DNA from: an uncultured Bacteriovoracaceae bacterium
Lineage (GTDB): Bacteria; Bdellovibrionota; UBA2394
DNA length: 64,000 nt
NCBI GenBank assembly: GCA_964626465.1
Contig: CAZVFP010000001.1
Coordinates: 24,932-88,931 of the forward strand
Reading direction: 5' to 3'
This document shows, piece by piece, positions 10,048-33,609 of this stretch. The position numbers were made by a program, and so were the translations under genes. The notes under the pieces are model-generated. The model saw only the letters and a program-made list of their open reading frames with translations. It did no database searches and was not told where the DNA came from. How positions within the stretch are numbered: the stretch's first letter is position 1; each line of letters opens with the position of its first letter.

Positions 10048-10959
10048 CTATCTCACGTCCACAATTCTATCTCGATCAATACGTCTTACGGCCGCCGAGC
10101 CAGCGCCTGACCAGTAAATTGTGATATCAACGAATGGCCATCGACCTTTTCTCTTTTCTTCAAAGATTTGCTGAGCGACGCGATTGGCCATCGGACTATC
10201 ATCGTCGGAGAATCCAAACTGATGATTTCTCCAGCTGGGGATTGACTGAATCAAATCAAGCAATTCGGATAAAATCAAAAATTTTCGATCGGGCACATCA
10301 ATATTCGCGAGCTCGTCAAATTCGGGTGCTGTCACTGGAAAAATCAAAGGGAGTTGAGGCGTATTTTGAATGAACCTTCCCTCTTTTATTAAGCCAAAGC
10401 CTTTGAAGATATCGAGAGCGGGATGACCTCGTGATGTGACTAAGGCAATCTGTTCCGCAAGTGTGGGATCCTTTGCGGCCAATTCGTATTCGTGCATGAC
10501 GAAGCCATACCATTCGGTATCATTATGATCCTTCAACATCTTTCGAACTTGATTTTCAAACTGAGTGCCACGGTAAAGTGAAAATGCGATTTGTGGTGGC
10601 GCTTTGGAATAAGGAGAATCTGGTTTGCCAAGTTGGTCTCGGTACTTCGCAAACTCTCCATTGCTGATAATGACCGTCTTGCCAGATGAATTTTCAATGA
10701 CATAAACACCAGCGAGACATTTGAGCAAATTTCCATCGATATCGAAGGCTCTAAATTGAATGGGTCGCGGAATCCACAGTGGTCGATCCTGAGCATCTAT
10801 TTTTACTCCCCAACTTTGCAAAAGATCATGACGTTTTGCTGGAGTTAGAAATTGGTATTTAGCTTCAGGAGGATGAAATGTGCCGAAAACGAGTGGAAGA
10901 AATAGACTTATTTTTTTGGTCAACAATGTTAAGGACGTAACGCAATTCTGAAGGATCAT
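10048..10959 (-). CDS. Secreted hypothetical protein.
   Basis: 303-aa ORF. N-terminal signal LTLLTKKISLFLPLVFG. Confidence 0.55.
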   Translation of the reverse strand: MILQNCVTSLTLLTKKISLFLPLVFGTFHPPEAKYQFLTPAKRHDLLQSWGVKIDAQDRPLWIPRPIQFRAFDIDGNLLKCLAGVYVIENSSGKTVIISNGEFAKYRDQLGKPDSPYSKAPPQIAFSLYRGTQFENQVRKMLKDHNDTEWYGFVMHEYELAAKDPTLAEQIALVTSRGHPALDIFKGFGLIKEGRFIQNTPQLPLIFPVTAPEFDELANIDVPDRKFLILSELLDLIQSIPSWRNHQFGFSDDDSPMANRVAQQIFEEKRKGRWPFVDITIYWSGAGSAAVRRIDRDRIVDVR

Positions 10960-11072
10960 TTCTTGGTTCCTTGTCTTATTTCTTGGGAGGAAAGCATGAA
11001 TGTATCACTCCGTCTACAGGAAGATCTTTGAGAAGGCTTGCTGTTTGAATTTTCATCGTTCAGAATTTGAGA

Positions 11073-11771
11073 ATGATAGAGCTCTTTCAGTTTCCCGGTT
11101 TGAACAAGTCTTTGAGTATGAGTCCATTTTGTACGAAGGTTGAACTTTATCTTAAGATGACGGGTTTGCCGTACAAGAATCATTTTATTATGGATCCTCG
11201 TCCCGGGCCGAAGGGAAAAGCTCCGTATATCGTCGATGGTGATTTAAGAATCGGTGATTCACATTTGATCATTCAGTACTTGAAGAAAAAATATGGAGAT
11301 TCTTTAGATGCACATCTTTCGCCTGTCGAGCGTGCGACGGCTCTCGCGTTTCAGCGCTTGATGGAAGAAGATCTATATTGGGCGCTACTCTACGCGCGGT
11401 GGGGCGACGAGAACGGATATGCAAAAATGAAAGAGATCATTGGAAAGAATCTTCCGTTTTTTTTGCGTTCCTTCATCATGGGTAAGATTCGCAAAAACTT
11501 ATTGAGACAGGGATATGGTCACGGAATGATGAGGCATTCCGCTGATGAGATTTATGCTCGCGGCATCGAAAATTTAACGGCGGTTCGAGATTTTTTGGGG
11601 ACTAAGAAATATATGATGGGTGATCGGCCCTGCTCGCTTGATGCGACGGCTTTTGGATTTCTGCAGGCGATCAAGGACAGTCTCGTGCCAAATGTTTATC
11701 AGACATTCGTTTCATCTCATGGGAACCTGTCTGCCTATTGCGACCGTTTAAAGGCTGACTACTTTTCTTAA
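11073..11771 (+). CDS. Glutathione S-transferase-like (thioredoxin-fold N-terminal domain) protein.
   Basis: N-terminus MIELFQFPGLNKSLSMSPFCTKVELYLKMTGLPY resembles the GST_N/metaxin-like SPF motif. C-terminal helical domain. Confidence 0.65.
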   Translation: MIELFQFPGLNKSLSMSPFCTKVELYLKMTGLPYKNHFIMDPRPGPKGKAPYIVDGDLRIGDSHLIIQYLKKKYGDSLDAHLSPVERATALAFQRLMEEDLYWALLYARWGDENGYAKMKEIIGKNLPFFLRSFIMGKIRKNLLRQGYGHGMMRHSADEIYARGIENLTAVRDFLGTKKYMMGDRPCSLDATAFGFLQAIKDSLVPNVYQTFVSSHGNLSAYCDRLKADYFS

Positions 11772-11818: not shown

Positions 11819-14800
11819 ATGTTGTCGTCATTGGTTTTTTCCCCGCTTAATCGAGTTAAATCCGTAGTTTATGCCTCCACGTTGGTTCTAGGACTCTGCC
11901 AGTCCGCCATTGGTGGAACCCTGACATATGATGTCAGTGGTCCAAATGGTGAGAATGGGCGCAATGGGCGCAACTATTCAGGTTCTAGTGCGGGGCACGG
12001 CAGAGATGGCGGTAATGCCGGTCCGGCAAGCAATGGTTCTGATGCTGGATCTGTTGATCTCTCGATGCAGGATCATTTCAATGAGGGGCAGGCTGGCCCA
12101 GCATCCGTCGTGATTCGATCCCGGATTCTTCCTTCAAATGGCGTTCTTCAGGAGTCGTCCGTGACTGAAAGGCTCTCGCCTGCAAGTCCACGAATTCGAA
12201 TTATTGCCCGCGGTGGAAAAGGTGGAGATGGTGGCCATGGTGGAAATGGTGAAGACGGAGGCCGAGGTCGCGACGGCACTGATGCAACTCGCTCCTCTCG
12301 TGGCACTGATGGAGGCCGTGGATATGATGGAGGAGATGGCGGAAATGGCACGCCCGGTGGAGATGGTGGCCGAGGCGGTCGCGTTGTTGTTCGGTTAGCT
12401 GCGACTGATTTGCATCTGGGATTTCTGCTCGAGACAATTGATGTCAACGGCGGACGAGGCGGTGCTGAGGGTGAAAATGGATCTGCAGGAAGCGGTGGCG
12501 CCGGGGGCTCTGGGGGAAGCTCGACGAGCTGGCAAGAAAAGACGGGTGAAAGAAGTATTTCTGTTTCTAACGGTGATGGATCTTTCAGTCACAGACGAGA
12601 GGATGTTTTTTCAACGAGATCGAATCCTGGCGGCAGTTCCGGGGCAAGTGGATCTGACGGTCGAAGTGGCCGTGGTGAAACTCATGCAGGAATGCCTGGA
12701 CCTGATGGATCTTTTGAATTTTTGGTGACGGAGAATAATGGACGAGTATCGAAGTATCATTCTGTCTCAGACCTTCGACTGATTTCCTACGAACTAATAG
12801 AGACTGACGAAGTGTCGAGAGATGGCATCATTGAGCCGAGTGAAAATTTGACCATTAGAAATATTGTCATTCAAAATACTGGAGAGATGCCAAGTCCCGC
12901 AGGCAAGGCTGCTGTTCTCATTGGGTTGCCCCAAGCGGATTGGCTCAAATTGCCAGCGCGAATTTCTATTCCGAGTCTAAAACATAATCAGACATTCACG
13001 ATTGTCGAAGATTATAAAATTCAAATAGCGCCTCTGACCGCCTTCCAACAAAATCGTCGGTGGGCACGTTCTGAAAGGATTGATCCGCAAGCATCAGTCA
13101 CAAGAGTTTATTACGATTATAAAAATTTTTCTCGTCAGCAGACAATTACGATCACTCTTCCCATCGAAATCTCAGAAATTAAGGTGCCAGAGACCTTGGC
13201 ACCAGGTGAACGTTCGGCCATTTCATTTCGAGTGAAAAATATTTCATCGAAACCTCTTGGATCGAGCACGGACGGAAAACGCGCTGTTGAAGTTCTTTTG
13301 GCGCAAAAATCTCAAACAGAACTTCCATTCCAATTTGAAGGTCTCAACGGTGAGGTTCAATTGACAAATGGTTTTGTGGAAAAGATTTTGTCTCTTAATC
13401 CAAACGACGAAACAGTGGTTGAAGGATATTTGCGAGTTCCTGAATCCATAGAACCCTATTCCTCGGTCGATTTTTCGGCGAGTTTGAAATTTCCGCAGCT
13501 TGGCAGTTTGGATGAGGCCCGCATTGTTCAAGAAAATACGACCCGGTTGCGCATTGGTCAGAAATATCGGTATACCCCCGGTGCGGATATTTTAATGATT
13601 GTGAACCACAATACTGAGCGAAATGAGATTCTTGCGTGGACCAATTTATTCAAGAAGCTGGGTTTGAAATTCGATATTTGGGATACCAATTACTATGGTT
13701 ATCTCAATCTAAAGAGAGCGCTGGATGATGATGGTTCGACGCTGATGAAACTTTATGCGCATAAAACCGTGATTCTTTTGAATAATAAATCAGATCGAGA
13801 GAAGTCGAAGATGGGATCCGATGCTCTTGACGCCGAAGAATTTGTCGAGGCGGCCTCGAAACGTCTCATGAACTTCTATGTGATTGGAGGGCAAGGTGGT
13901 GTCGATTTTCTGAAATGGCTGATGACGACGGATCCTGATTCGCAGGGACTTATCGAAAATCCATCAGATCTCGGTCAGTTGAAATCGACGCCGGCCTCTT
14001 TTGTTCGACACATCGATGTGAAGAAACCAAATGAGAAACGCTGGCTGAAGCGAAGCACGACGCTTTCTTCAAGCCTCTATGAGGCTTATCCGGATCAGCG
14101 CTTCGTTTTTGAAGGCCTGACGAATCGTGTCAACCATGCCTACGATCAGGTTGTGATCCGGACAACGATTGCTCCGGCCCGGGGACGTGCCTCATATCTG
14201 TCTCAGCCCGATGAAGAAGTCCATACGGAGGCGTTCGTCAATAGTGAAGCCAATATCAGGGCACTTCTCTTGAATTTGCCGATGAAGAAAAAGCTAAATT
14301 TGTTGGGCAAACTTAATGCCGTGCATCTGGAATCTGTGCCGCATGTCAGTGAATACCTTTATCAGGCTGTTTTGCACGATATAGTTGAAGAGATCGATCT
14401 TTGGCGAAGAGCTCCAAAGGCCTTTCATAAGACGAATCGTGTCGCAATGAATATGCAATATTTTTTGTCGTATGTTGATTCGCGATTTCGCTTTGCTCAA
14501 AATGATGTGAGCGATCAGATGAAGCTCTTGATCGCGTCTTTAGCGGCTATCGATTGTTATTTAGATGCCATACCCGATTCCGTACTCGAAGATTATCTTC
14601 GCGCAGATTTCGATCTTTGGATGGACACTCAGTGGCCAAAGATTTTTGAAGGTAATCATGGAACTGCAAAAAAACTTTTTGATGCCAAGAAAATGGCTCT
14701 GCGAAAAAGTATAAAAGCTCGTGGAAAGGTTCTCGTTGGGCTTGACGATGTCGAGGTGCTCAGACATTTGCTGGTGTTCCCAGCAAAACGAGAGTTGAAG

Positions 14801-14848
14801 ACGACGGACGAAATCTTGAAATACGGTAATTTGGTGGATAAGCCATGA
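11819..14848 (+). CDS. Large secreted protein (1009 aa) with N-terminal Gly/Asp-rich nonapeptide repeat block and an unknown ~700-aa C-terminal region.
   Basis: Signal peptide VYASTLVLGLCQSAIG. Period-9 repeats GGKGGDGGH / GGNGEDGGR / GYDGGDGGN / GTPGGDGGR. A second Gly/Ser-rich tract follows. Confidence 0.8.
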   Translation: MLSSLVFSPLNRVKSVVYASTLVLGLCQSAIGGTLTYDVSGPNGENGRNGRNYSGSSAGHGRDGGNAGPASNGSDAGSVDLSMQDHFNEGQAGPASVVIRSRILPSNGVLQESSVTERLSPASPRIRIIARGGKGGDGGHGGNGEDGGRGRDGTDATRSSRGTDGGRGYDGGDGGNGTPGGDGGRGGRVVVRLAATDLHLGFLLETIDVNGGRGGAEGENGSAGSGGAGGSGGSSTSWQEKTGERSISVSNGDGSFSHRREDVFSTRSNPGGSSGASGSDGRSGRGETHAGMPGPDGSFEFLVTENNGRVSKYHSVSDLRLISYELIETDEVSRDGIIEPSENLTIRNIVIQNTGEMPSPAGKAAVLIGLPQADWLKLPARISIPSLKHNQTFTIVEDYKIQIAPLTAFQQNRRWARSERIDPQASVTRVYYDYKNFSRQQTITITLPIEISEIKVPETLAPGERSAISFRVKNISSKPLGSSTDGKRAVEVLLAQKSQTELPFQFEGLNGEVQLTNGFVEKILSLNPNDETVVEGYLRVPESIEPYSSVDFSASLKFPQLGSLDEARIVQENTTRLRIGQKYRYTPGADILMIVNHNTERNEILAWTNLFKKLGLKFDIWDTNYYGYLNLKRALDDDGSTLMKLYAHKTVILLNNKSDREKSKMGSDALDAEEFVEAASKRLMNFYVIGGQGGVDFLKWLMTTDPDSQGLIENPSDLGQLKSTPASFVRHIDVKKPNEKRWLKRSTTLSSSLYEAYPDQRFVFEGLTNRVNHAYDQVVIRTTIAPARGRASYLSQPDEEVHTEAFVNSEANIRALLLNLPMKKKLNLLGKLNAVHLESVPHVSEYLYQAVLHDIVEEIDLWRRAPKAFHKTNRVAMNMQYFLSYVDSRFRFAQNDVSDQMKLLIASLAAIDCYLDAIPDSVLEDYLRADFDLWMDTQWPKIFEGNHGTAKKLFDAKKMALRKSIKARGKVLVGLDDVEVLRHLLVFPAKRELKTTDEILKYGNLVDKP
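12200..12560 (+). repeat. Coding low-complexity repeat: period-27-nt (nonapeptide) Gly/Asp-rich repeats followed by a Gly/Ser tract, inside the 1009-aa gene.
   Basis: Repeated ggtggagatggtggcc... units. They generate spurious antisense ORFs. Confidence 0.6.
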
Positions 14849-15807
14849 AAAAAAATCTCTTAAAAATATTTTCGTTGTTAACACTGTCACTTTTGATTTC
14901 ATCTGGTCTGGATTATTTGATGGCAGCAAATGCTGATTCAGAGAACGTTCCATGTCGTTCGGTATTGATTGGGGTTGGTCAGAGCTACTGGGGGCAATAT
15001 TTCTGCCATCAATGTAATCAACTTTATTCGGCCAGGCCAAATGTTCAGGGTCGTCAGCAATGTCCCACTTGCGGTAAAGCTCATGAAAGGCCAAGAGATG
15101 GATCGGATGATGCCATTAACTTACCGCATGATGAAGTCATTGTTGACGGAAAGCCATACTTAAGAATTTGGGTTCCAGAGGCGGCTATTGTTGTAGGTGA
15201 TCCTACGGCAAAGTTTGCTGGTAAGGGGGCGCTTCAGTCTTGTTTATTCTGTGGATCCAGCGGCTTTGCTATTGATAAAGCCTGCGGAGGTTGTGGTGCG
15301 CAGTTTGAGAAAGGCGCCGCGCGGTCAAAGGCTGTAAGAGTTCCTCAAGTTGTTCAGGCGTCGAGTCGTCCAACTTCTCAGGCAAAACCTGCGAGTGGCG
15401 CGAGCCGTGGCGTTAACCTCGCTGAGAAAAGAATGTCGGCCCCGGCTCCTTCACCGAACCTGCCGCATGAATTTAGGCCTATCCGCTCCAACAGCGGCTT
15501 GGCCGCTTTGAGATCCGTCTTAATTGGATCGAGCATTGGAGCGACCGCCCTTTCAGTAGCTGTTGGTCTCACTCTTTTTGGTCGCAGTCCTTATATCGCT
15601 GAAGGGCATGTGGTTGATGTTTCTGGGCCAGCGATCACGGTGACTTATACGGCGCGAAGAGGGCAACAACAGCAGCTGACATTTATAGCAGAGAATGTCG
15701 GCGTTCGAGTCGGCGATTCAGTGGAGTTACACGGGCGACGTTGGGGCAGCATCAAGGGCGGCGAAACGTCTGCCGGAATTATTTTGTCTCTCAAGCCGAA
15801 AGACTGA
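14845..15807 (+). CDS. Membrane protein with signal/anchor, two CxxC...CxxC zinc-ribbon-like motifs and one internal TM helix.
   Basis: CHQC...CPTC and CLFC...CGGC pairs. TM helix AALRSVLIGSSIGATALSVAVGLTLFG. ATGA overlap with the upstream giant gene. Confidence 0.65.
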   Translation: MKKNLLKIFSLLTLSLLISSGLDYLMAANADSENVPCRSVLIGVGQSYWGQYFCHQCNQLYSARPNVQGRQQCPTCGKAHERPRDGSDDAINLPHDEVIVDGKPYLRIWVPEAAIVVGDPTAKFAGKGALQSCLFCGSSGFAIDKACGGCGAQFEKGAARSKAVRVPQVVQASSRPTSQAKPASGASRGVNLAEKRMSAPAPSPNLPHEFRPIRSNSGLAALRSVLIGSSIGATALSVAVGLTLFGRSPYIAEGHVVDVSGPAITVTYTARRGQQQQLTFIAENVGVRVGDSVELHGRRWGSIKGGETSAGIILSLKPKD

Positions 15808-15915
15808 TTTTTTTTCGAACATTCGATAATCATTGCCAAAGAAACGGCCTTTTCGTTAACGCTGAGTGATAGGGTTTTGAATTTTAAATTCAAATAATCG
15901 TTCAGGGAGCCGGAT

Positions 15916-17538
15916 ATGCGTCAGTTTCTTTTTTCAGTGATCTTCTTATTTTCTGTATCAGCCTTTGGTGCTGAGATTCCATCAGGAAAACCCGCCAACT
16001 TCTGTCGCTTTTTTCTTGGATCTCTGAATGTGGAAAATGCGCATCCTCCGTATATGACGATTCCAGATCGGGTTGCTGAATATACGCCGATCAAGCACCT
16101 GGGATCAATTCGTGCGCGGGGATTGGCTGGCTCTCCGAATCGTCGTCTGCCCAATTGGACGCGAGAAAAAGTAGAGCTCAAGCTTGGGCAGTTACAGACT
16201 CTTTTGGGGCTCTGGCCTGAGAGGCCTGCGGTGCTTGGAATTGTGGAAGTGCGAGATGCGAGTATCACTGGCAAAATTGCAACTGCTCTTGGTTACAAGG
16301 AGCCGATCGTGAGTGCGAGCAGCAATGAGCGCGGAATGGATGTAGGATTGCTTCTTAATCCATCGCCGGAGCTGGAAATCGTGAGCACGCAAGAGGTGCC
16401 GCTGACTGGCCCAGAGTTTGCCAACTACAGAACAAGGAATTTGTTGGTCGTAAGTGTCTCCGTCGCACAACGTTTTTTACTTCACTTTGTTGTGGCTCAC
16501 TGGCCGTCGCAGGGAGGGCCGACCGAAGCTCGTGTTGAGGCGGCTCGTCAGACTCGAGCGCTGGTGGGCAAACTGAAGTCTGATTATCCTGGATCCGAAG
16601 CCATCGTCATGGGAGATTTTAATACTTTGGATTCTGAAAAAGATATTCTTGGTCGTCACCCTTTTCGAGATATTTTGCTTGAAGCAAATGGGGCTGCAAC
16701 TCTGGTGGATGCGTTTACGTTGGAATCAATGAGAGCTCCAGGAGCCCATCCAGAGGGAACTTACTACTACGCGCCGAATGATGAGTGGAATCGCCTTGAT
16801 CGATTTTTCGTGACGGATGGATTGCTTCGAAATCGCCCTAACGGACTTCGGCTTGTGAGCAAGACTTATCGCGTGAATGCTCCCGAGGCGGTGACTCACG
16901 AAGTGAAGCGCCGAGACGGATCAACAATTCGCGTACCTTTGAGATACGATCCAGAGGCAACAACGGCAGCGCGTGCAGGCTTTACGGATCATTTTGGAAT
17001 TTCTGTTGGAATTGAAGCGCATTGGCAGGATTCTGGCTTGGAGCGTGTGCGATTTCTTTTAGATCAAGACATTTTGCTGGCCAGATCGGTTATCCTCTTT
17101 CCGAAATCGCCAAAGGGGGCTCGTCGCTTCATCTCGTGGTCTGAGTATGTGGCAGAAAAAGATAAAATCGGCGTGGACGGTGCCAAGTTTGGAGCATTTG
17201 AGATTCGTGAGGGCGAGAGTTTCGTCCGATTGCGAGACGGAGATGATGGAAAAAATTGGTACTTCAATGATTTGAGATACGATAGCGAAGGCGGCGATAT
17301 TGAAAAAATCCGCGGTCCAAGGTGGGACGAATTTGTGGCTGCACTTGCAACGCCGGAATCCGCAAGGCGCGTTCTTCTGCATATTCCCGACTACAGAACA
17401 CATCGACCTGAGTCAGTCTATCAACTGCTGCTGGATTTGCGTGAAAAAGGAATCATTGCCGAATTGCCGCTTCTCGAAAATATAGAGCAGGCGCCTTCGA
17501 CAATGCCGGTCGATTTAGCTGAAACGAAGGCGAAATAG
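15916..17538 (+). CDS. Secreted endonuclease/exonuclease/phosphatase (EEP) family protein with extra C-terminal domain.
   Basis: Signal peptide. EEP motifs NVEN, GIVEV, VVAHW, MGDFN, DHFGI. A ~180-aa C-terminal extension follows. Confidence 0.8.
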   Translation: MRQFLFSVIFLFSVSAFGAEIPSGKPANFCRFFLGSLNVENAHPPYMTIPDRVAEYTPIKHLGSIRARGLAGSPNRRLPNWTREKVELKLGQLQTLLGLWPERPAVLGIVEVRDASITGKIATALGYKEPIVSASSNERGMDVGLLLNPSPELEIVSTQEVPLTGPEFANYRTRNLLVVSVSVAQRFLLHFVVAHWPSQGGPTEARVEAARQTRALVGKLKSDYPGSEAIVMGDFNTLDSEKDILGRHPFRDILLEANGAATLVDAFTLESMRAPGAHPEGTYYYAPNDEWNRLDRFFVTDGLLRNRPNGLRLVSKTYRVNAPEAVTHEVKRRDGSTIRVPLRYDPEATTAARAGFTDHFGISVGIEAHWQDSGLERVRFLLDQDILLARSVILFPKSPKGARRFISWSEYVAEKDKIGVDGAKFGAFEIREGESFVRLRDGDDGKNWYFNDLRYDSEGGDIEKIRGPRWDEFVAALATPESARRVLLHIPDYRTHRPESVYQLLLDLREKGIIAELPLLENIEQAPSTMPVDLAETKAK

Positions 17539-17569
17539 TTGCTAAACTTGGCACGCAACTTGCTTTAAA

Positions 17570-18661
17570 TTGAGGACGATGCTCGCGTATTTATCGGCCG
17601 TGTATTTTTCAGTTGTGTCTCAGACAAATGTTTTGGCTGAGACGCTTCCGACCTGCTCAACAAATGCGTCGATCGTTCAGCAAACCAACAAAATTTTTGA
17701 GAAATCGGCAAAGAAACTGGAAAATCGGCGAGTGTTTCTTCCGCTGAGCCAGATGCCTTTGTCCCTTAATTCATTGGATGCCGTAGCGTTCAATCCCAGC
17801 GATCGCTCTCGCTTGACTCAGATCTCTCTCATTCTGCAGATTTCGGTCATCCACGTGAGTGGAGAAGGTTCAAGAAGTCTCAGTGACGTGACGATTTCGC
17901 GCCAACGTTCTGATTTTATGACGTCGGTATCGCAAGAGATGAAGCAAAAAAAATTTTCAGTGAATTCGAATTTGCCACCCATTTTACCGCACCAACTTTT
18001 TCCTCTTGAGGCAGCGTTTAGCTCGACCAATCAAGCAGCTTATGCGAGTGCTTTTGTTGCCCCGGGCCGGGTGCTCGGCGAGGGGCGATTTACTTCCCTC
18101 ACTCCCCTCCTTCTGTTCAAAGATTTTTCGGATAAAACAGGTATCTTAAAAGAGATGATCAATGCTCTCATTTGGAAGCAGAGAGCTCAGAAGGGTTTGA
18201 TGGATCCATGGTCTGTGACTTTTCATTTTCAAAATCCTGACGATTATGAATTCTTGAGAGAGAATGAGCAGGAAGAGTTTTTGCTGCGGCCGACGCATTA
18301 TGTGCCAAAACTCTTCGAGAGAAGCCAACGATTTTATGATCAACTGGCGATTCAGTTTGATGCGCAGTGGCTGCTCTTTGAGAACTCCGAGTATTGGGGA
18401 CTCTCTGGGACTGTTCGAAGGGAGGCCCTTGAGAATCTGCGTGCAATTTTGGGAAGTCCTTATGAGGGTGGCGTGGATGGATCAGTGGGACTCGTCAAGC
18501 TGGTCGGAGATATTTCATCTCGAATTGGAGCATTGGCGTCTAGGCCTGATGGATTCAAAGATCCTCGTCTCGATGGCCAGCTTCGTGAGTTCGAAAGCTG
18601 GCTCCGCCAGCGAAAGGCATCTGTAGATGCCGCTTATGCGTGGCTTCAAAAACAGAATTAA
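17570..18661 (+). CDS. Secreted hypothetical protein.
   Basis: 363-aa ORF. Signal peptide ending VLAETLP. Confidence 0.6.
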   Translation: MRTMLAYLSAVYFSVVSQTNVLAETLPTCSTNASIVQQTNKIFEKSAKKLENRRVFLPLSQMPLSLNSLDAVAFNPSDRSRLTQISLILQISVIHVSGEGSRSLSDVTISRQRSDFMTSVSQEMKQKKFSVNSNLPPILPHQLFPLEAAFSSTNQAAYASAFVAPGRVLGEGRFTSLTPLLLFKDFSDKTGILKEMINALIWKQRAQKGLMDPWSVTFHFQNPDDYEFLRENEQEEFLLRPTHYVPKLFERSQRFYDQLAIQFDAQWLLFENSEYWGLSGTVRREALENLRAILGSPYEGGVDGSVGLVKLVGDISSRIGALASRPDGFKDPRLDGQLREFESWLRQRKASVDAAYAWLQKQN

Positions 18662-18734
18662 TTCATAGGCTTTGCTCGCCGACTTGTGTTCCTTCGGGCT
18701 TAGTGTTGCAATGGTAGTCTTGGGGGAACAGTTT

Positions 18735-19406
18735 ATGAGGTTATATGCGCTTATTTTGTCGTTTTTTTTATCCTGTCTCGGGCTCTTCAGAAACGAATTT
18801 GACGTTCTAGCCAGCGTGAATCCGAAGGAATCAAAACGCAATTTTAAGCCTGTGAATTCTCCCTCTCCTTCGCCTGAGGCGAGTGATAAGCCGTCGTCGG
18901 GTGGGGTGACAAAAACAGAGACCGGACTCCCCGGCACTAAATCTACTTTTAATTTTGTGGATGGTGGCGATCGTCGGGCTTTGGAATATTCGGTTCAGGT
19001 GGGTTGCCAAACCGTGACTGGAAGTAGTTTGGCCAATCGTTATGAACTGGAAGTTTGTATTAGCCCAGATTTCAAGACACGAGTTTTTTCTTTGAAAGTT
19101 TCTGTTCAGTGTGATGACGAGAAAGATCCGTCGAAGGTGATTGCAGCAATGGGTCTTTTGTCGCGTCGAGCAGAACATTATTGTGTGACTGAAAAGGCTC
19201 ACAACTTAAGCTATAAAGAATCCTGCGGGTATGAGCCCATGGCAGCCTGTGGGGGTGATTGGTACAGCACTAAAGGAACGAATTGCCAGCGAGAGAATAT
19301 CAAATATTGTTGTAGTCCTGGTGTCGATTGTAGTCGCTATCAGAAGGAGTTCGATCTGAATCGAATTATTAAGTATTCGGAAGAACCCATATGGCCATCG
19401 TTTTAG
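18735..19406 (+). CDS. Cys-rich small secreted protein/lipoprotein, hypothetical.
   Basis: Start chosen at MRLYALILSFFLSCLG, which is preceded by a GGGGGA Shine-Dalgarno-like run. About 12 Cys in the mature part. Confidence 0.5.
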   Translation: MRLYALILSFFLSCLGLFRNEFDVLASVNPKESKRNFKPVNSPSPSPEASDKPSSGGVTKTETGLPGTKSTFNFVDGGDRRALEYSVQVGCQTVTGSSLANRYELEVCISPDFKTRVFSLKVSVQCDDEKDPSKVIAAMGLLSRRAEHYCVTEKAHNLSYKESCGYEPMAACGGDWYSTKGTNCQRENIKYCCSPGVDCSRYQKEFDLNRIIKYSEEPIWPSF

Positions 19407-20827
19407 GTTCTAGAAATATCAGACGAGCTCTGGCGATTTTTGCGCTATCTTTTTTGACCTGTGGATGTAAGGCGATTCCTGACGTCGCGTTGGAAGAGAA
19501 TATCGATAAGACAAAAAATCCGGCGAGTTCTTTACCTCAACCGACGAGTCTTGATCAGGCAAATCAGAAGACTCAAAACCAGCCCGAGACCTCTCCTTCT
19601 CCGTCTCCATCTCCGGCAAAGCCGCCTGTGGCGGCTTCTCCTGCGAAACCGGCCCCCGTACCTGCCGCCCCGGTTATTCCTCCTATGCCGCCACCGGTAC
19701 CGGCGCCAGTTCCTCCTCCTGTAAATCCTCCACCAGCGACGCCGACGGCACCCCCGCCAGCTGCGCCAACTCCAACAGCTCCAGTGAATGCGCCGATCGA
19801 TCCGTCATGGCCAGATCCAGCAAAGGATTTGCTCATTGTTTATAATTCAAAGTCCAAAGACAGTGTAGATCTGCTCAATTACTATAGAACGCAGAGAGCT
19901 GCAGGCATTGAGAAGGCCCCCACATTTGCGATAGCGTTTCCAACGTGGTGTGAAGTTGGATCTGATGGCTGCTATTCACCAGATTCCGAGTTAGTTCCCG
20001 GATGGCCAGTTGACTATGCTCAGATTGAAGTTGTTAAGCCAATTCTCGATCATCTGAAAACTCGCCCTACTATAAAACATGTTTTACTCCTCTATGGAAT
20101 CCCCACGAGAAGTGTTAATTTTTCGGAATCGATTTCAAGCCGAATCAGTGGCCCCTCCAATACGAAAGTAACAACGATCAATATGGGTTCCGCAGAATCT
20201 ACGAAAGCCTATATTGACAAGCTCGTGCGGATGAAAAATTCGATGCCACAAACGATGGGGCCGATCATTTCGTCCAAGTCGAGCCCTTTGCGGGGCGTTG
20301 TCTATGGATTCGAAGATGCGGGGTCGAGGTATGGTGGAATTCCTTGGAACGGGCAACAGGGAGAGCTTCGTCGTGATGCGGTTCTCAGTGTTAATCCATC
20401 GGCGATTATTGATTTTAGACCTTTTGGAGCTCAACGAATCAGCACCCTCAAAGATGTTGCAGGTTTTGTCACCTGGGGAGCAAATGGAGGCCGAGAACCG
20501 ACTTACTCAGGCGATGGATCAATTAAGTTTTCCGGAAATTCATCTTGGTGGGTGTTGAACACGATTGAGTCTTTCAATGGTCAGCAACGTGTTGCTTGGC
20601 AGGGCTCATATGAGCGCTGGTTTGCAAAGAATGCATTTGGCTCTGTGAATTATGAGAATACGCCCGTTGCTGCGACGGCGCATACCACCGAGCCTAGCCT
20701 TCTTGGTGTTGCGGACGCGAGTCTCTATGCATGTTGGGAATCTGGAAAACTTTGGATTGATTGCGCAGCATCAGCCACGCGTACGCCAAGCTACTTAAAT
20801 CTGGGTGACCCTTATATCTCTCGATAG
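19391..20827 (+). CDS. Lipoprotein with Pro/Ala-rich linker and a ~330-aa C-terminal domain of unknown function.
   Basis: N-terminus LAIFALSFLTCGC (lipobox-like). The PSPSPSPAKPPVAASPAKPAPVP... tract is about 70 aa. Confidence 0.65.
   Translation: MAIVLGSRNIRRALAIFALSFLTCGCKAIPDVALEENIDKTKNPASSLPQPTSLDQANQKTQNQPETSPSPSPSPAKPPVAASPAKPAPVPAAPVIPPMPPPVPAPVPPPVNPPPATPTAPPPAAPTPTAPVNAPIDPSWPDPAKDLLIVYNSKSKDSVDLLNYYRTQRAAGIEKAPTFAIAFPTWCEVGSDGCYSPDSELVPGWPVDYAQIEVVKPILDHLKTRPTIKHVLLLYGIPTRSVNFSESISSRISGPSNTKVTTINMGSAESTKAYIDKLVRMKNSMPQTMGPIISSKSSPLRGVVYGFEDAGSRYGGIPWNGQQGELRRDAVLSVNPSAIIDFRPFGAQRISTLKDVAGFVTWGANGGREPTYSGDGSIKFSGNSSWWVLNTIESFNGQQRVAWQGSYERWFAKNAFGSVNYENTPVAATAHTTEPSLLGVADASLYACWESGKLWIDCAASATRTPSYLNLGDPYISR
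19590..19800 (+). repeat. Coding Pro/Ala-rich low-complexity linker.
   Basis: ccg/cct/gcg-rich tract encoding PSPSPSPAKPP... Confidence 0.5.
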
Positions 20828-22260
20828 GTGTTGTTGATCTCGAGAGCTTCAAAGAAAATATCTTGAGTCACAATCGAGTCTGCATCGAGCGAAAGCGCAA
20901 GAGTCTGTGGCCGATAACCCGGCGCAGCAAAGTTAAATTCATAGCTTCCAGCGATGAGGGGTTTAAAGAAAATTCCATTTTTGCTGGCTCTTGGTTTTTC
21001 ATCTTTGTATGCCAACCCGTTAATCGAAACGAATCCGTCGATTGGCTGACCCGTCTTTGCGTCTAACATTCGTCCTCTAAGCTGAGGCCCCGCGACCATA
21101 CGATTGAGAAGATAATTCCATCCGGCTCGTTGCCCGATCACTGTTTTGTCTCGCCATTCGTCATAAGACGGCTGGAATCCTTGATCCGAGCCATTTACTT
21201 CGATGACATAAGCAAGCGTATTCACTTCATTGTACATCCACGAAATATCATCTCCGTCGACCGGATATAAAATTTCCCATCCAGTTCCGTAACGATAGGT
21301 TCCTCTGCCATCATCTGTTTTTAGTTTTTTCGCGAGCGACGCGCCGATTTCTCTCACGATCATATTTTCAGGAGTTAAATGATCCTGGCAACCATAGGGA
21401 GCGATCACCAGCTCGCTATAGGAATGATAAGAAATATCCATTGCGAAGTTTTTATCTTTCACGAATTTCATCATTGAAATCGTCTCGGGTTCACTGGCGG
21501 CCTTTTCGCCACGATAGGTTTGATTTCTTTGACTTCCGCTGCTTCCACCGCAGGTTCCCCATTCATAGGGATAGTTTCGATTAAGATCGACGCCCCATGT
21601 CGATTCAGAATCTCCCCGAGCATTCTTTCGCCACCAATTATCCTTTGTCCAAGCAATATCATTTCCATCAGGATTGAATTGCGGGAGTATCCAGATGGCC
21701 AGATTTTTGAGCCAGACATTCACCCAGGGTGTTTCTGGATTGTCGTAGTTTGTGACGAGATAGTTCATGATGTCAGTAGTGATTTCCGTTGTCATGATTT
21801 CGCGAGCGTGATGCATGCCATTGAAGAGGATGGTTGGCTTATAGTCGATATTGTCGGGTGTCGAAATGCGAACTGCAAAAATCGGTTTGCCACGCAGACT
21901 ATTTCCAATTGATTCAACGTGGACTAATTCCGGATACTTCTCTTGCAAGGCTCGAATATTGGAGACAATTTTAGCATATGTCTGGTAGCGGGGATCGATG
22001 CCGCCAATCTGTTCACGGATGATTTCGACACTGTAACCACTGTCTTTCAATAGTTCGAAATATTCGGGGGATCCAACAATATCGAGTGTATTTTTTTCAA
22101 GATCTTGGCCTGCAATATCAATAGAACCAGGAATGCTTTGGATGCGCATTTCAGAATCTCTCAGGTTCAGGCGGATCAACACTTTAGGGTCTTCGATTTC
22201 ACTCTGAGCGACGGTGATTTGCGAGACGAACAGCAAAGCGATAGCATAAATATATTTCAT
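20812..22260 (-). CDS. Secreted M14-family zinc carboxypeptidase with C-terminal carboxypeptidase-regulatory-like domain.
   Basis: Signal peptide. NGMHHAREIMT (HxxE zinc ligand). DLNRNYPYEWG, SYHSYSELV. Confidence 0.9.
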   Translation of the reverse strand: MKYIYAIALLFVSQITVAQSEIEDPKVLIRLNLRDSEMRIQSIPGSIDIAGQDLEKNTLDIVGSPEYFELLKDSGYSVEIIREQIGGIDPRYQTYAKIVSNIRALQEKYPELVHVESIGNSLRGKPIFAVRISTPDNIDYKPTILFNGMHHAREIMTTEITTDIMNYLVTNYDNPETPWVNVWLKNLAIWILPQFNPDGNDIAWTKDNWWRKNARGDSESTWGVDLNRNYPYEWGTCGGSSGSQRNQTYRGEKAASEPETISMMKFVKDKNFAMDISYHSYSELVIAPYGCQDHLTPENMIVREIGASLAKKLKTDDGRGTYRYGTGWEILYPVDGDDISWMYNEVNTLAYVIEVNGSDQGFQPSYDEWRDKTVIGQRAGWNYLLNRMVAGPQLRGRMLDAKTGQPIDGFVSINGLAYKDEKPRASKNGIFFKPLIAGSYEFNFAAPGYRPQTLALSLDADSIVTQDIFFEALEINNTYREI

Positions 22261-22418: not shown

Positions 22419-23591
22419 TTATTTTGCAGCAGGATCTTTTTGCTTGGGAGGATCATAAAAAATTTTCTCAAGTCCCTTCCAGTAGCCCTTCATGAGTTCC
22501 GATAGTCGATTCTGCTCCGCGGGCCCAATAGTAAAATTTGTTTTGATTTCTTTTTCACGCTTCTGCATGACTTCAATAGTTTTAATTCCGAGAGCTGTGA
22601 ATTCTGGATCGTCGTCAAAAAGATCTCGAGTGAATTGAGAGTTCAACGCTTTTGCTGCTTCAACGGCCGCTTGTGGGCTTGATACCTTATCGACTGTATC
22701 TACAAGTGTTTGAGCAACTGAGAGCTGAGCTTCATCTTCAACTAGAATCTGAATTTTTGAAATCATGTCAACGAACGGTTTTATCGGGTCTTCAGCTTTG
22801 TGGTCCGTAAAATATTCAAGACGTTTTTTAAAAAAAACCATCGCCAATTCCGTGGCTTCGATATCATCAATTCCAAAAAGCAAATCCATGCGGTCATGAT
22901 TTTGCGCATACCAGGTGATATAGGAAATGGTTTCGCTGTCTGATGTCCGTCTTGCAATTTGCACAACGAGATCAACTTTTTCATGCGAGACTAAATAATC
23001 CATAATATCTGGGCTGAAGGTTGAATGATGTTTTTCAACAAATGTTTCAAGCGCCAGCTCGCCGAGATACGACGTCTTGCCGTCAAGAATTTCCACGATA
23101 TCTGAGCTTACAAAATTGACTGCGCCAAGCAGACCGATGAGTTCCGCGGCCAATCTTCTGACAGGACCATCAAGAGGTGTTAGCTCTGTGGCGGGCAATT
23201 TGAGTACATCGACGATCGATTCGACGAGTTCTGGGTAGTTCACAAGGTTGATGTTTTCAGGTAGCTTCTTGATTTCTTCGAGGCCCATTTTCACTACAGC
23301 GAGACTCTTGGTATATTTGATGCGCCTTAATGCAAGTTCAACGATTGAGCGCTGCTCTGGTGTTCCAAGAAATGGTTTTTTCGGAACATGCATTCTCCAC
23401 TTAAATACCGGCGTAACAACAGGTGCATTGGTACCGGGGGTACCAGGTGTACCGGGGGCACCGGGAATCTCAATGGGTGAAGTCGTTGGAGGGCTGTTTG
23501 TGTCCGAGGTTTGAGCCGCGAGTGGGTATGCAGTAAAAGACATTGTGCATACAAATATGGCTGTCGAAACTTCCCTCATCCCAACTACCAA
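22419..23591 (-). CDS. Secreted hypothetical protein.
   Basis: Signal peptide FVCTMSFTAYPLAAQ, then a GAPGTPGTPGT low-complexity segment. The rest is predicted alpha-rich. Confidence 0.6.
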   Translation of the reverse strand: MVVGMREVSTAIFVCTMSFTAYPLAAQTSDTNSPPTTSPIEIPGAPGTPGTPGTNAPVVTPVFKWRMHVPKKPFLGTPEQRSIVELALRRIKYTKSLAVVKMGLEEIKKLPENINLVNYPELVESIVDVLKLPATELTPLDGPVRRLAAELIGLLGAVNFVSSDIVEILDGKTSYLGELALETFVEKHHSTFSPDIMDYLVSHEKVDLVVQIARRTSDSETISYITWYAQNHDRMDLLFGIDDIEATELAMVFFKKRLEYFTDHKAEDPIKPFVDMISKIQILVEDEAQLSVAQTLVDTVDKVSSPQAAVEAAKALNSQFTRDLFDDDPEFTALGIKTIEVMQKREKEIKTNFTIGPAEQNRLSELMKGYWKGLEKIFYDPPKQKDPAAK

Positions 23592-26050: not shown

Positions 26051-27604
26051 TTGATATTGCCTCAAAAAATACTTCAGCTGTTCATTTCATTTTCATTCAG
26101 CGTGATGTTGCTGCTGTTGCAGAATCTCGGCGCCCAAAGCTTGATGTGGACGTCTCATCGATATTTTCTTGATCAGCGCGAAAATTTATTTGTGTCAAAT
26201 AGTTCGCCGTCCCAGTTATTGGGAAATTATCCGTCACTGTTCGAACGTCGTTCTATGGTTTTCAGGAATTTAACTGCGGATACATTTTTTCGACCCACAC
26301 GGGAGCGTTTTTCGATTCAGTGGAATGCGCAAGTGGCGGGTCTTTATCAGCAGCCCTATCGTGAGCCTCTCATGGGCTCAGACCGCTGGCCTGTGCATTA
26401 TTCGGACGTTGTACACGATTCTGAGGGCCTTCTTTCGCATCAACCCATCGAAGGAGCTCATTCTTGGACGGGTCTAGAAGCGCAGTGGATGCCGAGTAGT
26501 TGGCTTGGTTTGAGTGGCAAGATTTCGTCTGGAAAAAATTGGCGAAAGGACGATTTATGGTGGCAAGTTGACGAGCTTTATACCGATATTCGCATAAACA
26601 AATTGATTCTCTCTGTAGGACGAAAGCCTCTGTTTTGGGGACAAAATGGAACTGGATCATTTCTACAGTCATTGAACGCGAAAAATCTCGACCTTATTGA
26701 ACTGACGAATTTGCCGCTCATCCTTCCCTCTTTTTTTCGCCATTTGGGGCCAGTGAAAGCTGACTTTTTCTTCTCTCGTCTCGATGCTGAAAGACTTCCA
26801 TCGAATGATTTTTTCTCGGGCTGGCGACTTGGTTTTAAGCCAACGAAAAAATTCGAGATGAATATTTCTGGAGTGTATCAATGGGGAGGAGACTCGATTG
26901 CTTCAGAATCTTGGTATCATGCACTTGTAGAATATTTTGGGGGGCGGGTTCAGACAGGTTCCACCAACCTGGATACATCGAATTTCTTTAATCGTGCGGG
27001 CTTGCTCGATTGGCGGTTGACGTTTAGCGACTGGAAATATCCAACCTCATTCTACAGCGAGAATCATTTGGAAGATTGCTGTGGAAATCCATTTTTTCTT
27101 CTCAAGAAGGCTGTCTCATACTCTTATGGAGCCCATGTACTGTCGAGTCATGAACCAGATGCATGGCGATTCAGACTCGAGTATTTAAAGACGGGAAACG
27201 CCATTTATTATCATCAGACTTGGCCCTCTGCTGCATCAAACGCAGGGCGTTTGATGGGTCACGATATGGGGCGAGATGCTCAAGAAATTTATGTCGAGGT
27301 TGCAAAAAACTTAAGTCCTTTGAGAATCGACTGTCGTCTCTATGGATTCTGGAGGGAACGACTTAGAACTGGCCGATTATCAACGGTCTCGGAGGTTCCG
27401 GACGTCGACGCACATGGTTTGATTCCCTATTTCACGGAAAGTGAAAAAACTTCAGCCATCGGTTTCAATATGAAATGGGCATGGTCGAAGTTTCTTGTTT
27501 TTGATGCCGGGGGTCTGATTGATTATGTTTTTAACAAAGAAGGCCGAGGGGGTGTAAATAGGCTCGAAGGTGGCTTCCAAATGGGGTTTTCGGCCTTGTT
27601 TTAG
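26051..27604 (+). CDS. Putative outer-membrane beta-barrel protein (possibly Wzi-like capsule/glycan-associated).
   Basis: Signal peptide. Amphipathic beta-rich composition. C-terminal ...GFSALF ends in an aromatic residue, which is typical of OMP barrels. Confidence 0.55.
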   Translation: MILPQKILQLFISFSFSVMLLLLQNLGAQSLMWTSHRYFLDQRENLFVSNSSPSQLLGNYPSLFERRSMVFRNLTADTFFRPTRERFSIQWNAQVAGLYQQPYREPLMGSDRWPVHYSDVVHDSEGLLSHQPIEGAHSWTGLEAQWMPSSWLGLSGKISSGKNWRKDDLWWQVDELYTDIRINKLILSVGRKPLFWGQNGTGSFLQSLNAKNLDLIELTNLPLILPSFFRHLGPVKADFFFSRLDAERLPSNDFFSGWRLGFKPTKKFEMNISGVYQWGGDSIASESWYHALVEYFGGRVQTGSTNLDTSNFFNRAGLLDWRLTFSDWKYPTSFYSENHLEDCCGNPFFLLKKAVSYSYGAHVLSSHEPDAWRFRLEYLKTGNAIYYHQTWPSAASNAGRLMGHDMGRDAQEIYVEVAKNLSPLRIDCRLYGFWRERLRTGRLSTVSEVPDVDAHGLIPYFTESEKTSAIGFNMKWAWSKFLVFDAGGLIDYVFNKEGRGGVNRLEGGFQMGFSALF

Positions 27605-27651
27605 GCCTCGTCCTCGATAGACACGGGCCTTAAATTGTAATTATCTACGTC

Positions 27652-29433
27652 ATGCTCGCGGTCGTTCCACGACGGATTAAAATTCGTGTCAGCGTTTTGT
27701 CAGTTGTCGCCGCAGCCATCATCTTTGCGCCGTGGTCGTTTTCTCAGTCGATCGTTTTCAATCTTGTGTGGACTTTATTGAGTGTCTTGTTTGGGCTCTA
27801 TATGCTCTGGTGTTATTGGCCAAAACTCAATTGGGGAATCGGTCGTGAAATATCAGGATCCCTCGCGATTGTGGCTGGCCAGAAATTCTCATTAACTTTT
27901 GATGATGGCCCTACACCGGGGCTCACTGAAAAAATTTTGGATATTCTTACTGCCACAAATATAAGGGCTTCGTTCTTTGTCTTGCTTCCAAAAGCGAGAG
28001 AGAATCCTGACCTTATTCGACGCATCGTCAACGAGGGTCATGAGCTCGGCCTGCACGGTGAAGATCATCGTTCTCCATTCTTTAGAACGCCTCAAGATCT
28101 CTTTTTGTCTCTGTCGCGCGCGAAGGCTGAGCTAGAAAATATAGCCGGTCGATCCGTAGATCTGTATCGACCGAGTCATGGTTGGAAAAATATAGCTCTG
28201 CTGATCGCTGTGAGACGTGCTTCTCTAAAAATCGTGCAATGGGATTTGGGCGTTTGGGATACAGCCAATCCGGATCTCAATACTTTATTTGATCGATTGA
28301 AACTCTCTTCTTCCGCTTCACATGAAAACAATAGAAAGACAATTTTACTCCATGATGGTAAAAATGATGACCCTCAGATGCCCGCTCATGGTGTCGTTCT
28401 CTTAAGTGCTCTCGAGAAGTGGTTGCGTTTTGAGAATTCTCATCGCAGTGATCAATCTAATTCGACTACTCGCGTTGCATTTGGGGGATGGCTTGGTTTC
28501 TTCGTCGTGGTGGCCCTTTCAATCTTGGCGGTTCGTCACATTAACTTTCAAGCTTTTTTAATTTCGCTTAAATCACAATCGTTATTAGCTCTTTTTTGTG
28601 TTTGTGCTGGAAATCTAGTCGCGACTTTCTTCCAAGGGTTGCGTTTTTTTTGGCTTTTACCAAATTCAAATATTTCAGCGTTGCGACAGGTGGGGCTCCA
28701 ATTCGTTGTGAATTCAGGAAATATCTTGCTTCCCTTTCGGGCGAGCGAAGTCATTCGACCTCTATTCTTAAAAAAATGGGAAGATAGAATTTCAATTAAG
28801 GAGCTGATCCTCTGGACCGTGGTCGATAAATTCCTAGAGGCTCTGAGCTTTTTACCATTTCTGCTTGTAGCTTCAGAAATGTTTTCAATTTCTAGGATAT
28901 GGCTTTTCGTCGCCATTGCTCTCGGTGGAGCGGGAATTTTCTTCTGGCGCAGGAGGTGGCCGCATATTCAGCCTCGTTCTTTAATTCTTGCAACGCTGGC
29001 GTCTTGCGCTATGTGGACAGCCTATGTTTTTTCGTTTGGAGTTCTGTTTTCTTCTTGGAAGTTGGGTTTTGGGGCAACCATTGCGACCACTCTTGGATCT
29101 GTGATTCCTGCGGGCCCTGCGAGTATTGGAACGTTTGAAGCGGCGCTTACCTGGTTTCTTGAAAGCTTTAAGCAGATGCCTGCCTCTGAAGCTTTGGCAG
29201 TGGCCGTTGCGGCGCATGGAAGTCTGATCTTTTCAAGTTTAATGGTTGGGGTGCCGCTGATCATGACTTGGGGCTGGCCGAAGCGACATGGTGAGATGAT
29301 TTCAAAAGTTCGAGTGCCACTTCGTTATAAGTTCACCAATACTTTGGTCTATATCTGCGCGTTTATTATGATTGTTTTTTCGTTTGCCATTTGGATTCCA
29401 GAATCGCGAATGCCCAAGGTGAATAGGAATTAA
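27652..29433 (+). CDS. Polysaccharide deacetylase (NodB homology domain) fused to a C-terminal lysyl-PG-synthase-like (MprF/UPF0104-type) transmembrane domain.
   Basis: NodB motifs TFDDGP and HELGLHGEDH, LYRPSHGW. N-terminal TM helices and about 8 C-terminal TM helices. Confidence 0.75.
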   Translation: MLAVVPRRIKIRVSVLSVVAAAIIFAPWSFSQSIVFNLVWTLLSVLFGLYMLWCYWPKLNWGIGREISGSLAIVAGQKFSLTFDDGPTPGLTEKILDILTATNIRASFFVLLPKARENPDLIRRIVNEGHELGLHGEDHRSPFFRTPQDLFLSLSRAKAELENIAGRSVDLYRPSHGWKNIALLIAVRRASLKIVQWDLGVWDTANPDLNTLFDRLKLSSSASHENNRKTILLHDGKNDDPQMPAHGVVLLSALEKWLRFENSHRSDQSNSTTRVAFGGWLGFFVVVALSILAVRHINFQAFLISLKSQSLLALFCVCAGNLVATFFQGLRFFWLLPNSNISALRQVGLQFVVNSGNILLPFRASEVIRPLFLKKWEDRISIKELILWTVVDKFLEALSFLPFLLVASEMFSISRIWLFVAIALGGAGIFFWRRRWPHIQPRSLILATLASCAMWTAYVFSFGVLFSSWKLGFGATIATTLGSVIPAGPASIGTFEAALTWFLESFKQMPASEALAVAVAAHGSLIFSSLMVGVPLIMTWGWPKRHGEMISKVRVPLRYKFTNTLVYICAFIMIVFSFAIWIPESRMPKVNRN

Positions 29434-29451
29434 GATGAATAGGAACCTGCG

Positions 29452-33003: not shown

Positions 33004-33609
33004 TCACTCTTTTTTGAATTGATGAACTGTCGAACCCGTCTCGGCTGCATTTTCTGTCTGGTGCGTAGAAGTTTGTTTTCCTGGCTGCTCTGTTGATAGG
33101 CCACTCTTCTGAAGATTCGAGGCGTTTAAATTCTCTAACTTTTTCAAAAGTTGCTGAAGCACTTCTGCCAAAGCAGAGTCACCTTCTCGTTTTAGGCTGA
33201 TTTGAAATTCATGCTCTTTTTCTCTTATCAAACGTGCCTTCTCGTCCTTCAAAGCATCAACTTTCTCTGAAAGCTGAACCAAGTTTTTTGTAACGATTTC
33301 TCTCAGTTCTGAGGCATTCACAGGCTCAGAATTGCCTTTGCCACCGAAGTGTCGATGATAGCGTTCATATAAACCGGCGTCAGTGTTCGGAAATATTTGG
33401 GTCTTCAATGAACCCAGCGTAGGCTCCTTGGTCAAACGTATGACAACCTGTATATCGATCTCTGCAAATTTCAGTTCGCTACTTACGCGCTTGAGTTCGA
33501 TTGAGACTCTAGATAACTGCTGATCGAGCGATTCGGCAGACAGCGATTGAATGGAGATTAGTCGCGATAAGGTTGCTAGGAATAATAAGATCACTCGTTT
33601 GCTGTTCAT
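33004..33609 (-). CDS. Secreted coiled-coil hypothetical protein.
   Basis: Signal peptide. Heptad-rich sequence. Confidence 0.55.
   Translation of the reverse strand: MNSKRVILLFLATLSRLISIQSLSAESLDQQLSRVSIELKRVSSELKFAEIDIQVVIRLTKEPTLGSLKTQIFPNTDAGLYERYHRHFGGKGNSEPVNASELREIVTKNLVQLSEKVDALKDEKARLIREKEHEFQISLKREGDSALAEVLQQLLKKLENLNASNLQKSGLSTEQPGKQTSTHQTENAAETGSTVHQFKKE

Follow-up and report, generated by a model that had tools for sequence, protein, structure and literature searches.

A probable mosaic of exported-protein genes around a conserved DUF7932 gene pair in an uncultured Bdellovibrionota genome

An array of exported-looking gene products

We analyzed a window of 64,000 nucleotides (nt) from the genome of an uncultured Bacteriovoracaceae bacterium of the phylum Bdellovibrionota (GenBank assembly GCA_964626465.1, contig CAZVFP010000001.1, positions 24,932 to 88,931 of the forward strand). 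All positions given here are those of the window. The subject is a 9-kb array of six consecutive plus-strand genes, designated g1 to g6, together with the convergent gene g7 that follows it (Table 1). A preliminary description, made from the sequence alone, had presented these genes as a dense array encoding a giant repeat protein, a membrane protein, an endonuclease/exonuclease/phosphatase (EEP) enzyme with an extra C-terminal domain, a 363-amino-acid protein of no recognized kind, a Cys-rich small protein, a Pro/Ala-linker lipoprotein and a secreted M14 carboxypeptidase. Our analysis bears out the coordinates, the strands and, on the evidence presented for each gene below, most of these characterizations. 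The description had also proposed that all six genes of the array encode signal-peptide proteins, and that the density of exported proteins is consistent with an extracellular or periplasmic attack toolkit or a locus for surface remodelling.

Signal peptides were scored with our own heuristic. It looks for an n-region with positive charge, an h-region that is hydrophobic and free of charges, and a cleavage site made up of small residues, and it allows alternative starts. All of g1 to g7 pass, and the products of all seven genes look exported on this basis. The weakest case is g1, although signal peptides are clear in its homologues from the related loci L003 and L007-L012. The signal-peptide-like N-terminus of the next gene, g8, is weaker; it would lengthen the probable run of exported-protein genes to eight.

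Such N-termini are common in this genome. About 20 of the 48 open reading frames (ORFs) of at least 150 amino acids (aa) in the window pass the same heuristic, and 79 of 235 ORFs (34%) pass a stricter version when 12 related loci are added. The baseline of signal-peptide-like ORFs is therefore ~34-40%, both here and in related loci. With this probability, independence between genes, an assumed rather than measured 0.7 chance that each next gene lies on the same strand, and a genome of 3500 genes, we estimate that a co-directional run of six would be expected about one to two times per genome. Further runs of three or four exported-protein genes occur in the window, for example at 33004-37742. 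Because such a run is expected once or twice per genome by chance, the density of the array, which was not shown to be above chance, is no evidence for a functional island.

Table 1. Genes of the array, with the domains and motifs mapped on their products. Positions are in nt of the window; aa, amino acids; TM, transmembrane.
Feature	Position	Strand	Length or residues	Description
g1	11819-14848	+	1009 aa	Predicted exported DUF7932-family protein (coordinates from ORF list)
g1 N-terminus			1-31	Signal-peptide-like, disordered in model
g1 Gly-rich region			35-300	Gly-rich period-3 segments
g1 Gly-rich segments			39-77, 130-187, 209-235, 270-297	Confidently modelled, without DSSP helix or strand; short beta elements between them
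g1 first sandwich			319-445	DUF7932 beta-sandwich, CARDB-like
g1 second sandwich			~449-580	CARDB-like beta-sandwich
g1 alpha/beta domain			~590-700	Flavodoxin-like
g1 C-terminal region			~740-1002	Mixed alpha/beta, then helical
g2	14845-15807	+	320 aa	Predicted bitopic membrane partner of g1
g2 Cys4 knuckle 1	15004-15072		C54/C57/C73/C76	
g2 Cys4 knuckle 2	15241-15294		C133/C136/C147/C150	
g2 linker				Ser/Pro/Ala, after second Cys4 knuckle and before TM helix
g2 TM helix	15514-15582		~224-246	Predicted
g2 C-terminal beta domain			~70 aa	After TM helix
g3	15916-17538	+	540 aa	Predicted exported EEP-fold enzyme
g3 EEP domain	16153-17013		80-366	
g3 C-terminal extension	17023-17535		170 aa	
g4	17570-18661	+	363 aa (360 aa if ATG at 17579 used)	Predicted exported, family-less
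g5	18672-19406 (longest ORF, TTG start)	+	244 aa (223 aa from ATG at 18735)	Cys-rich; public gene calls take the ATG (18735..19406)
g6	19391-20827	+	478 aa	Predicted lipoprotein with gingipain-fold domain
g6 Pro/Ala linker	19556-19810		~56-140	
g6 gingipain-fold domain	19808-20824		140-478 (339 aa)	TIGR03790-like
g7	20812-22260	-	482 aa	Predicted exported M14 zinc carboxypeptidase, convergent to g6
g8	22419-23591	-	390 aa	Beside g7; Pro/Thr-rich stretch; no family match

Conservation of the g1 and g2 pair

We compared 14 loci that carry a g1 homologue (L001-L012, L050 and L051) by tblastn with all proteins of the window. In 10 of them (L001, L002, L005, L006, L007, L009, L011, L012, L050 and L051), the gene immediately after the g1 homologue encodes, like g2, a protein with a signal peptide and four CxxC motifs. 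The stop and start of the two genes mostly overlap, as they do in the window (4 nt, ATGA). Homologues of g3 to g8 were found in none of the 14 loci, and for g3 to g6 there were none within 8-10 kb of a g1 homologue. In two loci, a signal-peptide protein without CxxC motifs or similarity to the partner overlaps or abuts the stop of the g1 homologue (L008 13366-14880, 504 aa; L010 10360-11706, 448 aa), which suggests that the partner has been replaced there.

The same separation is seen from the side of the other genes. In 29 metagenome loci carrying EEP homologues, there were no homologues of g1, g2, g4, g5 or g6, and an M14 gene was present in one locus, ~4.5 kb away. The locus of a 52%-identical g3 orthologue (L017) and that of a 30%-identical EEP homologue (L018) have unrelated neighbors; these two and L019 all lack g1, g2, g4, g5 and g6. 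The order g3-g4-g5 is kept only in L020, in which the EEP protein is 89% identical. Since only g1 and g2 recur together and g3 to g6 do not accompany the pair in the related loci, the array is best divided into a conserved two-gene module and lineage-specific genes. Neither the gene content nor the gene order of g1 to g6 as a whole is conserved in the relatives, so the idea of a single island fails the synteny check that the preliminary description had itself suggested.

We therefore consider it probable that genes for exported proteins form a mosaic in this part of an uncultured Bdellovibrionota genome, and that they are not one conserved island. Its first part would be the g1-g2 module, with g1 exported by the Sec pathway and g2 a translationally coupled, single-pass protein with exported Cys4 knuckles; g2 may anchor or assemble g1 at the cell envelope. 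The second part, g3 to g6, would be lineage-specific and comprise an EEP enzyme, two near-orphans and a gingipain-fold lipoprotein in which the cysteine-protease dyad appears to be replaced. The convergent carboxypeptidase gene g7 would form the third. The genes would be adjacent because exported-protein genes are very common, at about one-third of ORFs, and tend to cluster.

Some observations weigh against this interpretation. The signal-peptide calls rest on a home-made heuristic only, and the relatives sampled are few (14 loci) and mostly 26-39% identical. It is also possible that g1 to g6 are expressed as a single transcript, because the gaps from g3 to g6 are short and no convincing terminator follows g2. 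Intergenic distances are 40 nt between g3 and g4 and 73 nt between g4 and g5; g5 overlaps the start of g6 by 16 nt, as do the 3' ends of g6 and g7. A putative terminator after g2 folds on a par with shuffled sequence (z 0.48). Consensus scans and folding along the array gave no convincing terminator or promoter. In addition, the pair is followed by tightly spaced co-directional genes in four independent lineages, and 12 of these 15 genes look exported compared with a baseline of ~34% (all four in the window, three of three in L001, two of two in L009, and in L010 three followed by three without a signal peptide). This hints at a looser functional link.

A possible explanation for this enrichment is that the pair heads an operon with interchangeable exported cargo or accessory genes downstream. 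The pair would then be a display, assembly or delivery platform into which each lineage plugs its own secreted enzymes, here the EEP enzyme, the two orphans and the gingipain-fold lipoprotein. From one locus to the next, the follower genes are unrelated in sequence, which is in line with this idea. We keep it as the main alternative but regard it as rather unlikely. The enrichment is inflated, as genes of one operon are not independent, and a gap of 108 nt with a T8 run at its beginning separates g2 from g3. No component of a secretion machinery, such as an ATPase or outer-membrane channel, was seen. Furthermore, such followers are absent from seven loci, where either an opposite-strand gene comes at once (L002, L005, L007, L050, L051) or no co-directional gene is nearby (L003, L011); the pair therefore seems to function alone.

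Predicted structure and function of the products

The sole Pfam match of g1 is DUF7932 (PF25560; 59.9 bits against a cut-off of 27). At least 399 homologues of ~950-1200 aa were found in Bdellovibrionota and Myxococcota, all of them named ‘hypothetical’, and the same domain is present in all 120 g1 homologues among the matches listed. The closest homologues come from metagenome-assembled genomes (MAGs) labelled Bacteriovoracaceae, Bdellovibrionaceae, Bdellovibrionales, Oligoflexia and Pseudobdellovibrionaceae, and more distant ones from Myxococcota (Labilithrix, Polyangiaceae, Kofleriaceae). Given that the best match in a species-representative genome is just 39% identical, the lineage of the window is poorly sampled. 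The protein aligns over nearly its full length with homologues of ~1000 aa, which share its order of Gly-rich, sandwich and C-terminal regions. Literature searches gave no mention of the DUF7932 family, and no described function or solved structure was found. The Cys4 membrane partner and the period-3 glycine domain seen here are mentioned neither under the Pfam entry nor in the literature searched.

An AlphaFold2 model of g1, built from 34 sequences, has a mean predicted local distance difference test score (pLDDT) of 82.6. Residues 35-300 contain 26% Gly, with autocorrelation z-scores of 8.0, 5.2 and 4.2 at lags of 3, 6 and 9 residues, and its glycines account for most of the invariant columns of the family. 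We infer that the period-3 glycines and the confident geometry, neither helix nor strand, fit polyglycine-II or collagen-like packing. Foldseek searches with the model gave only tandem immunoglobulin (Ig)-like matches with TM-scores below 0.22 and no solved structure with the whole architecture; sequence and profile searches of the PDB gave nothing meaningful. A structural or adhesive role at the envelope or surface fits g1 best, on account of its predicted export, adhesin-type sandwiches and dedicated membrane partner. A role in defence was rejected, as PADLOC gave only one weak match on g1 (E 0.0076) and none on the other proteins.

Two further homologous loci depart from the usual organization. 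In a Bdellovibrionales MAG (L009 8963-12121), the g1 homologue appears split into ORFs of 430 and 598 aa and the downstream four-CxxC partner is intact; a frameshift or faulty assembly could account for the split. In a Labilithrix MAG (L004 10001-13162), the called start of the g1 homologue lacks a signal-peptide-like N-terminus and no Cys4 partner lies downstream. Possible reasons are a wrongly called start, as the genome is GC-rich, or a different organization in the Myxococcota branch.

The g2 protein begins with MKK and then a hydrophobic segment, which could be a signal peptide or an anchor. An alignment of eight partner sequences shows eight invariant cysteines (four CxxC), the N-terminal hydrophobic segment, a low-complexity linker, a TM helix near the C-terminus and a small C-terminal beta domain. 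Partners fall into two subfamilies, a short one of ~260-380 aa and a long one of ~380-420 aa. The Cys4 knuckles of g2 are predicted to lie outside the cytoplasm, because the N-terminus is positive and followed by a hydrophobic segment, and the last ~70 residues are predicted to lie inside because of the TM helix. The best match to a zinc-ribbon model is weak (Zn_ribbon_19, 20.3 bits, below the cut-off of 30.8). In view of the predicted exported location, the eight cysteines could, in an oxidizing compartment, form disulfides as an alternative to binding zinc.

By sequence, g3 is clearly an EEP-fold enzyme, and probably a secreted phosphodiesterase or nuclease; DNA, RNA, lipid or sugar phosphate are its possible substrates. 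Its EEP domain scores 87.2 bits with Exo_endo_phos_3 (PF19580; cut-off 27) and 32 bits with PF03372 (cut-off 24.5). The motifs GDFN (D234/N236) and DH (D358/H359) are invariant among aligned homologues, of which a word-indexed search returned only eight. In its domain, motifs and signal peptide, g3 resembles secreted EEP nucleases of the ExeM/NucH type, and one distant relative is called ‘predicted extracellular nuclease’ by its source. However, g3 scores just 13 bits with the ExeM/NucH model NF033681 (cut-off 300) and has a C-terminal extension that only its two closest relatives share, at 89% and 52% identity. This extension matched no family.

The following two genes are near-orphans whose products appear to be exported. 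No match for g4 was found in Pfam, NCBIfam, PADLOC or the PDB, and the metagenome scan returned no homologue. The only homologue found is 76% identical and adjoins the 89%-identical EEP gene in L020. Likewise, g5 matched no family, PDB entry or defence model, and its homologue was found only in L020. It contains 11 cysteines in 223 aa and, according to the heuristic, a plausible lipobox (FFLSC), so it is possibly a lipoprotein.

The lipobox-like sequence of g6, LTCGC, fits the PROSITE-type lipobox pattern, and the linker that follows is 58% Pro and Ala. A word-indexed search with the full-length protein returned only two proteins, with one relative among them, probably as a result of the Pro-rich linker dominating the indexed words. 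By exhaustive HMMER search, residues 140-478 matched 391 representative clusters at E<=1e-3, including 81 at E<=1e-30. TIGR03790 is matched by 28 of 37 aligned sequences (36 relatives and the domain of the window) at E<=1e-3, with a best E of 4.5e-12; the domain of the window is not among the 28, and g6 itself matches the model weakly at the start of the domain (12.4 bits against a cut-off of 67). In the relatives the domain is mostly the C-terminal part of much larger proteins, whereas in g6 it sits on a short lipoprotein. Fusions to PG_binding_1 (six) and SleB (four) occur, as well as to fn3, Ig, RCC1 or Kelch domains, and those to peptidoglycan-binding and SleB domains suggest a cell-wall-directed role. 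The TIGR03790 family is uncharacterized and was not mentioned in the literature searched.

According to its AlphaFold2 model (pLDDT 94.5), the g6 domain has the C25/clan CD fold of gingipain and caspase-type proteins. Its sequence is only 11-12% identical to those of the gingipains RgpB and Kgp, and at E<=0.1 g6 has no match in Pfam, not even to C25. We mapped the active site onto 150 aligned family domains by strand position and spacing rather than by residue-level superposition. In clan CD peptidases, the nucleophilic Cys is located just after the strand that corresponds to residues 249-252. In the g6 family, this site is occupied by an invariant E254-S255-x-N257-G258 motif. No conserved Cys is present in the catalytic subdomain of the 150 domains; no Cys column exceeds 68%, and the one that reaches this value is in a C-terminal helix. 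At the site of the expected His (G224-x-X226-G), 44% of members have His and 38% have Asn, which is also the residue in the protein of the window. H292 reaches 73% conservation, and E295 is invariant. As the His-Cys dyad of gingipains is not conserved, g6 is not a canonical gingipain; it also lacks the Ig-like and type IX secretion system C-terminal domains of these enzymes and has a predicted lipoprotein signal peptide. Judging from these residues, the domain could serve for binding, or it could be a hydrolase that uses another chemistry.

By comparison, g7 is by its sequence an ordinary secreted M14 zinc carboxypeptidase. It matches Peptidase_M14 (PF00246) at 222.8 bits against a cut-off of 21.6, contains a zinc-binding motif of the HxxE type (HARE), and has a CarboxypepD_reg-like C-terminal domain. 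Only a weak link to murein peptide amidases of the MpaA type was seen (14 bits, cut-off 157). Nothing unusual was found in this protein.

With hydrolase-type folds in g3, g6 and g7, the proposal of an extracellular or periplasmic attack or surface-remodelling toolkit can be revisited. Cultured members of the Bdellovibrionota are predatory, and the six or seven genes could be one co-regulated set given that they are largely co-directional, separated by short gaps and encode exported-looking products. The exported-looking products, the hydrolase-type folds and the relationship to a group with predatory cultured members are supported. The part that fails is the single coordinated 9-kb island, as there is no synteny beyond near-identical relatives. 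In addition, g7 is encoded on the other strand, the protease dyad is missing from g6, and runs of this length are expected by chance about once or twice per genome. We regard a toolkit as very unlikely and retain the mosaic as the preferred interpretation.

Surroundings of the array and its significance

Horizontal acquisition of the block as a genomic island was also considered. The GC content of the 12-20 kb region is 0.47-0.49, compared with 0.44-0.46 in the flanks, and the distribution of g3 to g6 is patchy. However, this shift is within the usual 0.41-0.49 of the window, and segments rich in Gly (GGN codons) or in Pro and Ala themselves raise GC. No tRNA gene, Rfam element, integrase, transposase or defence-system match was detected in the window. 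On these grounds a mobile island was rejected, and acquisition of the block in any such form is highly improbable.

Several neighbors of the array were recorded. A same-strand glutathione S-transferase (GST)-like gene (11067-11771, GST_N_4/GST_C_6) stops 47 nt upstream of g1. It scores 173 bits with the isoprene-epoxide GST model, under the cut-off of 300, has no signal peptide and does not adjoin g1 homologues in other loci. Further upstream is a 303-aa ORF on the minus strand (10048-10959) with a possible signal peptide from an internal start (MTKKISLFLPLVFG...). Its ‘FDIDGNLL’ motif is reminiscent of motif I of haloacid dehalogenase (HAD) phosphatases; the ORF has no Pfam or NCBIfam match. 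A relationship between this ORF and the g3 extension is unsupported, as a weak colinear BLASTP match (E 0.006) corresponds to an hhalign probability of only 2%. On the other side, a surface-polysaccharide-type cluster lies directly downstream of a radical S-adenosylmethionine gene on the plus strand (26051-30639, equivalent to 12179-16674 of L013). Pfam marks on the identical public contig identify a Wzi-like capsule assembly protein, a protein with Polysacc_deac_1 and LPG_synthase_TM domains, and a glycosyltransferase.

Identical copies of the region are present in this public contig (L013, JACCDT011644356.1 of GCA_013565695.1) and in two Logan contigs. The contig numbering of the assembly that holds L013 exceeds 11 million, and a sister assembly (JACCDV) includes a 778-kb contig, JACCDV010533668.1 (L040), with a distant EEP homologue. 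L013 looks like bacterial sequence within an assembly of very large size, which may be host-associated or environmental.

A more far-reaching interpretation would combine these results. In this case, g1 and g2 would constitute a hitherto unrecognized envelope apparatus of two components, known up to now mainly from Bdellovibrionota and Myxococcota, which presents a period-3 glycine domain, possibly of the polyglycine-II type, at the surface. The pair would often head variable operons of secreted enzymes and serve as a platform for prey contact or cargo display, and the dyad-less domain of g6 would represent new hydrolase chemistry on the caspase-gingipain fold, with Ser/Glu replacing Cys. We consider this combination decidedly unlikely. 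Every component is in an already catalogued family, even if only a DUF or an unnamed TIGRFAM.

The island as such is of little import, as runs of exported-protein genes are expected in such genomes and this one is not conserved. The only part of the array worth following up is the uncharacterized g1-g2 pair. DUF7932 proteins, with at least ~400 clusters, and their translationally coupled eight-Cys membrane partner represent a testable two-gene module. As a second by-product, the TIGR03790-like domain (~390 representative clusters) is recognized as having a predicted gingipain fold without the His/Cys dyad. Both help to annotate the ‘hypothetical’ exported proteins of predatory bacteria.

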